A DNA stretch of 64,000 bases from Eledone cirrhosa. Its lineage: Eukaryota. Both the position numbers and the translations under genes were made by a program. Position 1 is the first letter of the stretch, and every line of letters starts with the position of its first letter. Shown in pieces: positions 9,496 to 32,780 of this stretch. The stretch spans positions 332,382,001 through 332,446,000 of the forward strand of contig OZ024742.1 of NCBI GenBank assembly GCA_964016885.1, read 5' to 3'. Under the pieces are notes generated by a model. It saw only the letters and a program-made list of their open reading frames with translations, had not been told where the DNA came from and did no database searches.

Positions 9496-9971
9496 CAATA
9501 TTAAATAAATGGAAAACTATATTTATAAAACCATATTTATTTCATTATATATATTTCTGGGATATCATATTAACAATATGCTATGCCTTCATCAGACAAA
9601 ATACAATATAAACAGTTTTATAGACAAATAGGTTCGACATACCGTTATAACACCGACTTCATTTGAAGAGGTTTACGCTGGCTGTAAGGTTTACAGCCAG
9701 CGTAAACCTTTTCAAATGAAGTCGGTGTTATAACGGTATGTCGAACCTATTTGTCTATAAAACTGTTTATATTGTATTTTGTCTGATGAAGGCATAGCAT
9801 ATTGTTAATATGATATCCCAGAAATATATATAATGAAATAAATATGGTTTTATAAATATAGTTTTCCATTTATTTAATATTGTAAATATACTCCAAATAT
9901 TTGTCGAGTGCTTTTATACCAGTTATAAATATTTACTAGTTGTAACCCAACAATTTTAAATATAACTTTCC
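9496..9971 (+). mobile_element. PLE-derived ~390 bp hairpin + tail, family F
   Basis: About 9496-9687 mirrors about 9691-9883; tail to 9971. HHR CTGATGA(9783)...GAAA TATATA TA on the right arm. Confidence 0.85.
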
Positions 9972-10413
9972 ATATATATATATATATATATATATAGATA
10001 GATATATTATATGTATACATATATATACATGTGTTTGTGTATTTATGTGTATGTGTATGTATGGATATATATATATATGTGTGTGTGCATGTGTGTGCGT
10101 ATGTATGTGTGTATATATGTATGTATGTATGTATGTGTATGTACGTGTGTGTATATATATGTTTGTGTATTTATGTGTATGTGTGTGTATGTATATATAT
10201 ATATATATATATATATATATATATATATATATATATATATATATGTGTGTGTGTGTGTGTGTGTGCGTTATGTGTGTGTGTGTGTGTACATGTGTGTTTA
10301 TCTACTTTTATTTTTATTCTGTATCCTTTCATTCTTCCTTTTCGAGCCCCCCTTTCATATAGATTATATTTTTGTTTTTAAACTCCACCGTCAATAAATA
10401 CACTAGGAATTTC

Positions 10414-10470
10414 TCATGCTGATGACTGAAAGCAAATTGTTCTTGCTTTCAAGAAACCACTGGTAAATGA
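10414..10470 (+). ncRNA. Type I hammerhead ribozyme, family J pLTR
   Basis: TCAT(G)-CTGATGA-ct GAAAGCAA..TTGCTTTC aa-GAAA-CCACTGG-TA-AATGA. Copy at 20304-20360. Confidence 0.75.
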
Positions 10471-10685
10471 AATAATTATCTCATGTTGTTTATTACATAA
10501 CTAATAAGCTCTTTAACCTACATAGAGCACTCTTTTTTCCTGGACCTCTTCAACGGAATTACTTCATTTATACTGCTCCAATCGGGATTGATTGAAGCAT
10601 ATTATATATTATATACATGATTGGCACTTTCCAGCCCGATTAGTTGAGCACTCTATAGTTTTCAGGAATTTAACCAACATAGACC

Positions 10686-12762
10686 ATGGACCTTTATGAA
10701 TTGGATTATTCAATCAAAAATATACCTACTCACTGCTTATAGATAAAATCGAACAAGTCGTTAAAAGAATGAGATGGAAGGCAATGGTTTACGATGCATT
10801 CAATATTCAGTGCTGATACAAATGATTGTTTTGACATAAAATCCCGTAAATATCCTCCTACAATTAAAGACATGGCCAACTTCGAATTAGACCTTGTTAA
10901 TTTAATTAGTGATATGACATTTCGTACTAAACTTTCTAACGATATTTCTAATTTTAAAATTTTACAAACACTTTTGTTCTTTCCGATAAAACTAAAAAAT
11001 CTCTTTGAAGTTAATAGTATTTTGTATAACCAACTTTTAACTCATAGTATCACCAACAAATATCAATTAGCTAACAATAACATCTACAATATATTAATAA
11101 GGAAGCTAAAAACTAGCTAGTTCTTTAAAAATAGAAAACCAGATTGAAAGCCTAGCTAAACGTAAAGTATATATTACTCTTAAAGACCATAAATTAGACT
11201 TTACTAATCGACCTAGCTGTAGACTGATTAACCCGGCTAAATCCGAAGTTGGCCTTGCAAGTAAAAACATTTTAAGAAAAATAATTCTCAAATTAGAACT
11301 AAGACTGACTTATCACAATGGTTAAAAACATCCTCTGTTGTTTCTTGGTTTAATAATATACAAGGTAAAAATAAGTGTAGATTTACCAAATTTGATATTG
11401 TTGATTTTTAACCCTCTATTACTGTTTCCTTATTAACTAAAGCCTTAGATTTGGCAAGACCTTTAATTAATATTTCTAAATTAGAAGAAGACATTATCTT
11501 TCATGCTAGGAAAACTCTACTCTTTACTAATGAAAGTATTTGGGTTAAAGAGCGAGGCCCTGAAAATTATTTTGATGTTGCAATGGGTTCATATGACAGT
11601 GCGGATGTGTGTATCTTAGTAGGATTATTACTTCTCCACACCCTTAAAGAGAAATTTACTTCCCATAATATCGGTCTATACCGTGACGACGGATTGTCAG
11701 TTTCTCATACCAACAACGGCCATAACCTTGATAAATTCCGTAAAGATTTAATCAATACTTTTGCTAACCTAAACCTTAAAATTACTATAGATACGAACCT
11801 TACCAATGCTAACTTTCTTGACATTAATCTTGATCTACTCACTGCCTCTTTTAAACCTTATCATAAACCTAACGAAAATCTAAGATATATACACAAAGAG
11901 TCTTGCCATCCCCCTATAGTTTAAACAAATCTTATTCCCAATATTAGCCGTAGGATTTCTACCTTATCTTCGTCTCTAGACATTTTTAACAAAGCCGCCC
12001 CTTATTATAAAAAAGCCCTTAATAACAGCGGCTTTACAGGAAATATTAAATATTTAACTACTAAAACTAATCACGATAATAGGAAAAGGAAAATTATTTG
12101 GGTTACACCTCCATTCTCTCTAACTGTCAAAACTAATGTACGAAGGAAATTCCTTGACCTCTTAGACAAATATTTTCCCCCTAATCATAGATATTATAAG
12201 ATATGTAATAGAAATGTAGTTAAAATCAGTTACTCTTGCTGCCAATCAATGAAGTCTAAAATCACCAATTCTAATCGTACCAGAATAAATCCAGGATGCA
12301 GTTGCAGGAAGCAGGATGAATGCCCATTACAGGGCACATTTAATACCAAATCCGTTGTATATGAGGCCAAAGAGACACATTTAATTAACAACCAGCCAGG
12401 GGTGATCGATATGTTGGCATGACTCAGGTCAGGTTCAAAACCAGGTTTTATGCACATGTCGCTCCTTTTAAAGACTCTGATAAAAGAACAGCAACGGCTC
12501 TCCCAAATAAGGTGTGGGAATTCAAAGATAAAAACATCCCGTACTATATCGATTGGTCTATTTTAGACCATTCGGGGAATACCAAGGAGGCACAAAGAAT
12601 TATTCTTTGTGTAACACTGAACAATTTAGAATTCTACAAAACTTGAAAGCGACCTCAACTTGCCTGAACTCCAAGACCGAGATCTTCAGATGTTGTCTTC
12701 ACCTGAAATCACATCTGCTCTGTAACTGGATTGACATTCCTACGATGACTCAACCACCTTGA
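10686..12762 (+). pseudogene. PLE RT + GIY-YIG polyprotein, multiple frameshifts
   Basis: MDLYELDYSIKNIP, FELDL, TLKDHK..CRLINPAKSE, FDVAMGSYDSADVC, LYRDDGL, NFLDI, YIHKESCHPP, CSCRKQDECPL, LNSKTEIFRCCLH. Confidence 0.9.
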
Positions 12763-30650: not shown

Positions 30651-30662
30651 CATTATATATAT

Positions 30663-31116
30663 GGTCGATAAAATAAAGTACCAGTAATGCACTGGGTAAT
30701 TGCTGGCCTTGTGCCTAAAGTAGAAACAATTATATATATGGTTATATGGTGGATTGGCAGTATCGGTAGAGGGTCGGACGCCATGCTTTCCAGCATAGTT
30801 ACGTCCCATTGCGATCTGAGTTCAAATCCCGCCGAGGTTGACTTTGCCTTTCATCCTTACGGGGTCGATAAAATAAAGTACCACTAATGCACTGGGTAAT
30901 TGCAGGCCTTGTGCCTAAAGTAGAAACAATTATTAGGGCGGTGGATTGGCAGAGTTGGTAGAGGGTTGGACATGCTTTCCAGCATAGTTACGTCCCTTTA
31001 CAATCTGAGTTCAAATCCCGCCAAGGTTAACTTGCCTTTCATCCTTACGAGGTCGATAAAATAAAGTACCAGTAATGTACTGGGTAATTGCTGGCCTTGT
31101 GCCTAAAGTAGAAACA
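30663..31116 (+). mobile_element. Head-to-tail cluster of OK-like SINEs (3' fragment + 2 full copies)
   Basis: 30663-30728, 30748-30927 and 30937-31116 each match the SINE at 5505. Confidence 0.85.
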
Positions 31117-31178
31117 ATTATATATATATATATATATATATATATATATATATATATATATATATATATATATATATA

Positions 31179-32780
31179 GTGGTGGAACGCTGGAAGGTAA
31201 TATCCGTAGTGGTAGAGCACTCAGTCCCAGGGACGAGTTAGATAGAAGTGGTTACACAACAGTTAGTTCACCATACCGAGAACAATTGTTTCACCTTCGC
31301 GGATCTTCAACTCGGGATGTATATGGTTATAGGAACAGGAAGGACAACTGTACAAACGCGCATGCGGAGAAACTCGGTCACTTCACGCAGGCAATAGTAG
31401 ACTGCGTGCGAGAGTGGTGTAAGGGAGATAACTGCGAAAGTCCGGAAAGTTTTTTGGTTAAAAATAAAATTAAAAAAATTAAATATAAAATTACAAAGAA
31501 TCAGTCTTGTAGTTATGTAATAGATGTTTGGTGGCGTGTGGACAGCGTGTGAAAAATTCACTTCTCGTGTTTAGGCAATCACTATTGCGTAATCTCTTTA
31601 GGATAGTTATTCGTTCGTCAATACATAAGCCACACGTCGGTTTTCCCCTTGCGTATGGCTTGGACTTAGTGATGGCTTTCCATTGAATGGAGTACCCTAT
31701 GCTTGAGTCTTTGAGGGACCATACGTGGCTCACGAGCTTCGTGGATGAACATCTGTCCGGGTATCTGAAGGTAGACTGGAGGTTCAGGAAACGCTCCTTG
31801 AATCGGCCCTCCGCCATGCCCACATAGGATTTGACCTCCTGTGGTTTGTTTGGTCGGTCGGAAGTGACCAAAGCTTCATAGATTACAGCTGGTGTGTTGC
31901 ATTGTTGTTGAATGGGGAAAGCGTCAGGCTTACGGCAAGAGCACCCTGGTGGGGTGTTGCTCCTAGGGCTACTGGCGATGTGGGCCTTCATGTTCTTAGC
32001 GCAGGAGTATCCTAGTTTAACTTTGTGTCGCTAGGACATGAAGGCCCACATCACCAGCAGCCCTAGGAGCGACACCCCATCAGGGTGCTCTTGCCGTAAG
32101 CCTGAAGTTTGCCCCTTCAACAACAATGCAACACACCAGCTGTAATCTATGAAGCTGTGGTCACTTCCAAGCGGCCAAACGAAACACAGGAGGTCAAATC
32201 CTATGTGGGCATGGCGGAGGGCCGATTGAAGGAGCGTTTCCTGAACCACCAGTCTACCTTCAGATACCCGAACAGACGTTCATCCACGAAACTCGCGAGC
32301 CACGTATGGTCCCTCAAGGACTCAAGTATAGGGTACTCCATTCAATGGAAAGCCATCACTAAGTCAAAGCCATACGCAAGGGGAAATCCGACGTGTGGCT
32401 TATGTATTGACGAACGAATCACTATCCTAAAGAGATTACGCAATAGTGATTGCCTATACACGAGAAGTGAACTTTTCACGTGTTGTCCACACTTCACCAA
32501 ACATCTATTACATAACTACAAGGCTCCGGACTGATTCTTTGTAATTTTATCTTTAATTTTATTTTCAACCAAAAAACTTTCCCGACTTTCGCAGTTATCT
32601 CCGTTACACCCCCCGCACGCAGTCTACTATTGCCTGCGTGAAGTGACCTAGTTTATGCGCATGCGCATTCGTACGTTTGCCCTTCCTGTTCCTATAACCA
32701 TATACATCCCGAGCTGAAGATCCGCGAAGGTGAAACAATTGTTCTCGGTATGGTGAACTAACTGTTGTGTAACCACTTCT
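31179..32780 (-). mobile_element. Hydra-like PLE 3' end folded back into a ~1.5 kb palindrome (family I); two GIY-YIG copies
   Basis: 31243-32000 is inverted to 32030-32780; tail 31179-31242. ORFs 31491-31991(-) and 32109-32534(+) contain CSCRKP, VIYEA..YVGMAEG, CGLC, CPH. Confidence 0.9.
32709..32748 (+). ncRNA. Minimal type I hammerhead ribozyme, family I
   Basis: CCGAG-CTGAAGA-t CC gcgaa GG t-GAAA-CAATTG-TT-CTCGG. Confidence 0.85.

Follow-up and report, generated by a model that had tools for sequence, protein, structure and literature searches.

The tails of Penelope-like elements (PLEs) of the Hydra clade carry a bulged hairpin, of which a recurrent GAGY motif is the 3′ strand. This was found by sequence comparison starting from 64,000 nucleotides (nt) of Eledone cirrhosa DNA (assembly GCA_964016885.1, contig OZ024742.1, positions 332,382,001 to 332,446,000, forward strand), hereafter called the window. 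An earlier reading of the window, made from the letters alone (the sequence-only reading), had described a linear word, GAG(T/C)RC(T/C), at a near-constant 21-24 nt beyond the end of the inverted arm. Comparison across families shows a real, clade-wide cis-element that had been misdescribed as a linear motif. The 5′ leader has the hairpin twice, and each copy is likely (roughly seven chances in ten) an RNA binding site that sets the start of the reverse transcriptase (RT) about 6 bases upstream. The hairpin, its covariation, its duplication, the 6-nt offset of both insertion ends, the TA microhomology at these ends and the one-sided tails are established from the sequence.

The window is animal DNA with a GC content of 34%, rich in microsatellites, from an assembly of 3.0 Gb. 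Many short and a few long PLEs are inserted in its (TA)n runs, typically laid out as an inverted arm, a direct arm and a unique tail; the one-sided tail and the inverted pseudo-long terminal repeat (pLTR) are the defining oddities of PLEs. The nearest named protein relatives of these elements are from molluscs, chiefly an argonaut octopod. Elements were collected de novo with a script that required a TA run, an inverted arm of at least 24 nt and a tail of 15-160 nt with a microsatellite at its end. The sample of 1.44 Mb, composed of the window and 138 10-kb stretches taken at round coordinates, with 8 of them flanking the window, gave 97 inverted-arm elements in 30 families by BLAST, the (TA)n flank being a selection criterion; 26 of the 97 came from stretches fetched after the hairpin idea arose and are referred to as held-out.

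From 5′ to 3′, the hairpin is made up of RCTC, an upper stem with a loop of no fixed length, a bulge that usually has two bases and starts with T, and GAGY, or in short RCTC-(upper stem, variable loop)-TN-GAGY. It is present in at least half of the copies in 15 of the 30 families (0.29 expected) and, when a canonical outer pair is required, in 12 of 30 (0.12 expected). Each of the 15 belongs to the 20 families whose tails measure at least 62 nt; in the 10 short-tail families (<62 nt) of the sample, neither motif nor hairpin was found. Sixteen of the 26 held-out elements carry it.

The linear word exceeds chance: it occurs 50 times in the window against 23.8 ± 5.6 in shuffled sequence, and 8 of 30 families have it in their tails against 0.36 expected from shuffles; the RCY following GAGY is conserved only loosely. 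Every motif listed in the sequence-only reading was located again, the orphan copy at 50833 rather than 50832. The arm ends were reproduced de novo within 1-3 nt, except that the 10501 given for J is set by a different insertion (6204-6305), 4.3 kb away. The de novo arm ends and motif offsets are 9882 (plus 2 nt of TA microhomology) and +24 for F, 22216 and +22 for E, 14459 and +21 for F′, 31245 and +23 for I, 23716 and +31 for Q, and 39416 and +49 for A (GAGCCCT). The arm end of D is 35218, with the motif at +28, and a further case on the minus strand at 2748 (+29) had been overlooked. The supposed 21-24 nt offset holds in only 14 of 97 elements (3 of 11 in the window; 7 of 60 and 4 of 26 held-out) and was rejected, since family medians of the distance from arm end to GAG range over 22-87 nt (SD 21). 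The constant distance is that from the arm end to RCTC, with family medians averaging 7.1 nt (SD 2.9). The two halves of the hairpin lie 6 to >100 nt apart, and the odd offset of A is due to its long loop.

Pairing was assessed in 30 examples of hairpin 1, one per tail cluster or leader and some of them related, of which 17, from the inverted-arm families, had been anchored on CTC and TNGAG only. The outer pair is Watson-Crick in 26 of 30 (14 GC, 12 AT; permuted mean 13.6). Among the 90 upper pairs at positions 1-3, 77 are Watson-Crick, 9 GU and 1 AC, with a permuted mean of 36.9 (0 of 5000). These counts agree with those in an ungapped set of 5 sequences and in a model-fitted alignment of 17 hits, the latter of which leans to the model. 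On supported branches of an open reading frame (ORF) tree, built from 18 ORF fragments without published reference clades, the minimum number of swaps is 4 for the outer pair and 3 for the closing pair. A covariance model derived from five copies, one of the window and four from metagenomes, recovers F, J, E, F′, Q, D and K in the window at E below 1; I, A and the orphan were not recovered in this search. With their variable spacing and covariation, the halves agree better with a single-stranded structure (RNA) than with a site in duplex DNA. An RNA kissing loop through a palindromic GAGYRCTC was rejected because the hairpin already pairs the motif and the RCTC that follows the motif shows no conservation, and a coding role was rejected from the position upstream of the ATG. 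Rfam gave nothing in the window at gathering score, and the matches listed were mostly microsatellite or palindrome artefacts.

A second copy of the motif beyond the tail end, overlooked in the sequence-only reading, accounts for the other boundary. The tail of J runs on into the 5′ leader, and hairpin 2 begins about 6 nt past the tail end of the J family. Among 95 leaders in 13 ORF clusters, the best copy has both hairpins in 11 clusters, one decayed copy being without either; other copies are often truncated or mutated, and two hairpins were found in 20 of 38 members of the largest cluster. Hairpin 2 ends at a variable 26-65 nt upstream of the ATG. Full-length copies (e.g. L329) have both hairpins in front and end before hairpin 2 behind, and head-to-tail spaced copies are present. 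In L020, a hairpin that follows the end of a short-tail family was traced to a junction with another family. In family E (L214-L216), the place of hairpin 2 is taken by a GCAC/GTGC stem that has no bulge and lies 9-10 nt past the tail end and 40 nt upstream of the ATG; it is possibly a variant with a swapped core pair.

Insertion ends mostly fall at a set distance from one or other hairpin. When the 133 (TA)n-abutting ends of the unselected sample were mapped to leaders, 102 lay 4-10 nt before a hairpin and 64 exactly 6 nt before it, against 8.4% of TA/AT-led leader positions that fall within those windows. The modal offsets are 5-9 nt at both sites in most families, and the ends show short TA microhomology. 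For family F, hairpin 2 was predicted blind as GCTCC at 4-12 nt past the tail end; 99 matches were found in the genome and none with the reversed control, and all 10 F loci that were read have a complete hairpin 2 followed by a Hydra ORF about 27 nt further. Of 54 single inverted insertions of assigned families, 51 have a tail on one side only and 3 are symmetric, whereas independent choice of site by each strand would give at least half symmetric. In 48 of the 51 one-sided insertions, the arm ends at the hairpin-1 site. The hairpins predict element boundaries from sequence.

It is likely that the molecule concerned is RNA, that the PLE protein binds the hairpin and that the ends are RT starts. 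In the scheme proposed, the endonuclease would nick both strands of the (TA)n target, and each 3′ end would pair with UA just 5′ of a hairpin. One strand would be extended from hairpin 2 to give the tail and the direct arm, the other from hairpin 1 to give the tail-less inverted arm, and the two cDNAs would be joined head to head. With two hairpins positioning two RT starts, the tail would be the RNA between them, i.e. their spacing. Since finished copies stop short of hairpin 2, full-length templates would need a hairpin 2 downstream of the ORF, which could come from read-through tandem transcripts or hammerhead-derived circles. A more specific arrangement is proposed tentatively and may well be wrong: one ribonucleoprotein, probably with a protein dimer (borrowed by analogy from a prediction for the green anole element), in which two RTs, each anchored on one twin hairpin, extend both nicked (TA)n strands from two fixed sites of a circular or tandem RNA. 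If this were true, one rule would yield the tail, the inverted arm and the partial-tandem pLTR, the job of the hammerhead would be to make a circle placing hairpin 2 downstream of the ORF, and an RNA tag of about 100 nt would direct internal, telomerase-like priming of upstream cargo.

Several observations weigh against positioning of RT starts by RNA hairpins. The evidence for it comes from sequence and genomic ends, and 71 of the 133 mapped ends come from two families. Among sequencing runs, no RNA run was listed as containing the stretch. Family E has a defined tail end and no canonical hairpin 2. Just 15 of 159 tail-bearing copies stop within 20 nt upstream of the hairpin-1 start; most run well past it, so that two starts on one RNA need strand displacement, and stalling of the tail-side cDNA at that start was rejected, as the excess was slight. 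Thermodynamic support from folding single sequences is weak (z from -2.1 to +0.2), the minimum-energy folds of the D, A, K and orphan copies are without the hairpin, and E forms the lower stem only. The strand test is soft: GU outnumbers AC by 9:1 in the family examples, which were partly selected allowing GU, by 5:0 in 17 unselected examples and by 50:28 over all copies. By eye, two of six published Hydra consensi (Hydra-1_Obim and Hydra-1_Amil) have no recognisable hairpin, and the anole element, for which RT starts are described, belongs to another clade, Poseidon.

The sequence-only reading had proposed a GIY-YIG or RT binding site, and of these options RT binding is now favoured; a duplex-DNA GIY-YIG site fits less well and has become the main rival. 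In that case, the hairpins would be read in DNA: the GIY-YIG endonuclease would recognise single-stranded cDNA, an extruded duplex or RCTC/GAGY half-sites and nick about 6 nt away, and the ends would arise by resolution of a longer intermediate. This is considered unlikely. The genomic ends are compatible with either model and the strand test is too weak to help; moreover, the tail of Drosophila Penelope was reported to be needed for endonuclease recognition, as summarised in the excerpted text of Frangieh et al. (2024; PMC11167929), and in the portions available of Craig et al. (2021; PMC8557442), the tail is ascribed to endonuclease-mediated resolution. However, half-sites spaced 6 to >100 nt apart with covarying inner stems do not resemble a duplex site, the sense strand has more GU than AC, TA microhomology is what priming would leave, and direct sequencing put the anole ends at RT starts (PMC11167929, in part).

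Much less probable is that the leader hairpins serve expression, as internal promoter, in translation control or in RNA packaging, and that ends lie nearby for another reason such as AT-rich priming. Both hairpins do lie in the 5′ leader, the second shortly before the ATG, and for Drosophila Penelope, the 34-bp tail region is scored as a promoter and has an effect on tissue expression (PMC2377424, in the part seen). Yet the modal 6-nt offset at two sites is left unexplained against a null of 8.4%, the distance to the ATG varies, and paired covariation is unexpected in a promoter word. The core promoter element suggested earlier fares no better, as the covarying halves of the hairpin fit a single-stranded structure better. 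Descent from a common ancestor or base composition, with no function at all, is hardly credible. All carriers belong to one clade, and F, F′, Q and K cluster together, as had been said of the first three; however, the ORFs of the families of this genome are 40-44% identical to the F ORF with unalignable flanks, and pairing has nevertheless been kept by repeated double changes, so that common ancestry alone is insufficient. The chance expectation of 0.29 families, the covariation and the blind prediction of hairpin 2 in F also contradict it. Of the original proposal, a cis-element linked to the pLTR/tail boundary of PLEs stands; the 7-mer form does not, the word being the 3′ strand of the hairpin.

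By their motifs, the hairpin carriers match the Hydra clade as it is defined in the excerpted text of Craig et al. (PMC8557442). The N-terminal RWK motif is RMRWKA in J and RIRWRA, RLRWRA and RVRWKA in long ORFs of related loci, and DKG is changed to DKT in all 15 listed ORFs (SDKT in J, ADKT in H). The CxCx5C linker reads CSCRKQDEC in J, CNCHLPETC in H and CNCRDRSKC in the intact F ORF of L316 (L316:922-3135), and CxxC and CxH surround the C-terminal endonuclease (CPLC and CQH in H, CDLC and CKH in L316). The ORFs are short and single (709-813 aa), and the elements are flanked by (TA)n, a feature on which the later sample was chosen. Assignment to Neptune/Nematis PLEs, with a CX2-5CxxC linker and a CCHH endonuclease, was rejected, as the carriers have CxCx5C. 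By eye, no CCHH motif was seen in the translation of one ORF, that of H. A CxxxCxxC linker was found in a hairpin-less family at 17284-18363. No PLE-specific Pfam family was returned for the window ORFs. An AlphaFold model of the intact F ORF of 737 aa (predicted local distance difference test score, pLDDT, 92.6) has its best fold matches among telomerase RTs (TERT), and no solved PLE structure was found by sequence or fold search.

In 6 of 12 references, a descriptor match to a candidate hammerhead lies 27-57 nt ahead of hairpin 1; in the window, none was among the 150 Rfam matches listed out of 239. The hammerhead cut site was rejected as the 5′ junction of short copies, as no peak was seen there. 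In families D, A and E, short palindromic copies have their 5′ junctions clustered at 55-80 nt upstream of hairpin 1; this is near the 5′ part of the hammerhead, not its cut site, and may reflect template switching at natural stems or reference differences. The pLTR of the high-copy family A (39310-39400) has a hammerhead with CAGAAGA instead of the CUGAnGA core.

The hairpins are also found in other organisms. A 5′ region could be examined in 13 of 46 metagenome loci; both hairpins are present in 7, the second alone in 2 and no canonical one in 4. In L154, and in L169 when set beside L170, ends likewise stop 6-7 nt short of a hairpin, and a marine metagenome contig (L180:1570-1599) is identical to the family A leader L197 over 20 nt at hairpin 2 and its flank. 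By eye, the published sea-cucumber consensus Hydra-1_Ajap has both hairpins, the Hydra-2_Amil and Hydra-2_Ajap consensi have hairpin 1 in their tails, and Hydra-1_Crog has altered versions. No prior description of the hairpin element was found in the literature, although subscription papers, Repbase notes and figure-only supplements, which lay outside the search, could hold one. The Hydra PLEs of Craig et al. 2021 are alike in RWK, DKT, CxCx5C, CxxC/CxH and C-terminal endonuclease, and in hammerhead, (TA)n targets and an inverted arm with one-sided tail; as far as the excerpted text of PMC8557442 goes, leader hairpins are not described, and the tails are 30-40 nt against about 60-160 nt here.

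According to the part of Frangieh et al. 2024 that was available, two internal RT starts bound the tail in the green anole Poseidon element PAc, both target strands are cut and extended, and RNA 3′ of the start is needed, which is what downstream anchors would predict. Direct sequencing placed the ends at RT starts, and hammerhead cleavage does not mark them. The same text places the starts of PAc in an AC-rich stem-loop and names no duplicated positioning element, unlike the conserved, duplicated hairpin found here 3′ of each start. In the anole template RNA (PMC11167929, in part), a 4-bp UCUC/GAGA stem was seen by eye about 7 nt past the 111-118 start window; such stems are common. A second class of PLE tails in E. 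cirrhosa (40-60 nt; families 2, 4, 5, 8, 17 and 21) has no GAGY hairpin and carries an AC-loop hairpin about 7-10 nt past the arm end, by eye like the AC-rich stem-loop of the anole. The positioning rule may thus be general, with clade-specific hairpins.

The tail and inversion of PLEs have been ascribed to endonuclease resolution, to antisense self-priming and, recently, to two internal RT starts, and to our knowledge these accounts name no signal that fixes the two starts. The duplicated hairpin, short and covarying and 6 nt away from either end, would be such a signal for the whole Hydra clade in several invertebrate lineages, and makes the origin of the tail directly testable by simple mutagenesis. 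In telomerase RNA (TER), an internal site is primed by a short match between target and RNA and positioned by a flanking, protein-bound helix. Hydra elements differ in that repeats are not added and the hairpin, lying 3′ of the start, would set the beginning rather than the template stop; the likeness is one of proposed mechanism and predicted protein fold. In LINE-1 (long interspersed element) twin priming, the second target strand primes internally and a 5′ inversion results, but the internal site is opportunistic and the arms are not duplicated, whereas in Hydra elements the sites are fixed and the arms duplicated. As PLE RTs are the sister group of telomerase, a structure-positioned internal start would bear on the evolution of RNA-templated priming, and also on RNA-templated insertion tools.

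Table 1. Hairpins, PLE parts and related features of the window
Feature	Position	Strand	Basis or remark
F inverted arm, begins at (TA)n run	9497..9689	-	arm detection
F candidate type I hammerhead ribozyme in direct arm, predicted cut after 9832	9775..9840	+	descriptor match
F tail, arm end to (TA)n	9883..9971	+	arm detection
F hairpin 1 (ACTC...TC bulge...GAGT)	9890..9909	+	alignment, covariance model
pLTR upstream of near full-length element J	10298..10501	+	repeat comparison
J hairpin 1 (GCTC...TA...GAGC)	10508..10528	+	6 nt past arm end of the family
J hairpin 2	10575..10649	+	about 6 nt past tail end of the family (10568, from copies ending 6386 and 20454)
J Hydra-clade PLE ORF (RWK, DKT, YRDD, CxCx5C)	10686..12765	+	stops and frameshifts, end approximate
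Short J-family insertion	6204..6386	+	inverted arm 6204-6305 joined to tail, hairpin 1 at 6326-6346
Element H hairpin 1 (arms 6528/9323)	9332..9383	+	long loop, weak upper stem
F′ hairpin 1	14435..14454	-	covariance model
Another F′-type copy, hairpin 1	40279..40298	-	covariance model
E hairpin 1	22223..22241	+	covariance model
Q hairpin 1	23726..23750	+	alignment
I hairpin 1, 1-nt bulge variant	31219..31238	-	alignment
D hairpin 1	35226..35249	+	further copies 2525-2548 +, 36474-36497 -, 62687-62708 +
A hairpin 1, long loop, 5′ strand decayed to GTTC	39423..39468	+	intact copy 20531-20576 -
Family K hairpin 1, absent from the sequence-only reading	2716..2740	-	covariance model
Orphan, ACTC...TG...GAGT geometry, weak upper stem, unplaced	50789..50836	+	
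Second-class tail	16513-16558	-	by eye
Second-class tail	53513-53559	+	by eye
Second-class tail	1828-1867	-	by eye

No further copy of the orphan was found in the 1.44-Mb sample. The stretch adjoins one copy of a dispersed repeat of 180-280 nt, which occurs in the window at 5504-5687, 30663-31118, 41843-42023, 50612-50790 and 56926-57213, shows words resembling pol III A and B boxes by eye and is probably a short interspersed element (SINE). A LINE-type element at 24260-29240 (+) of the window, broken by stops, has two frames, one ORF1-like and the other of endonuclease-RT type (RVT_1).

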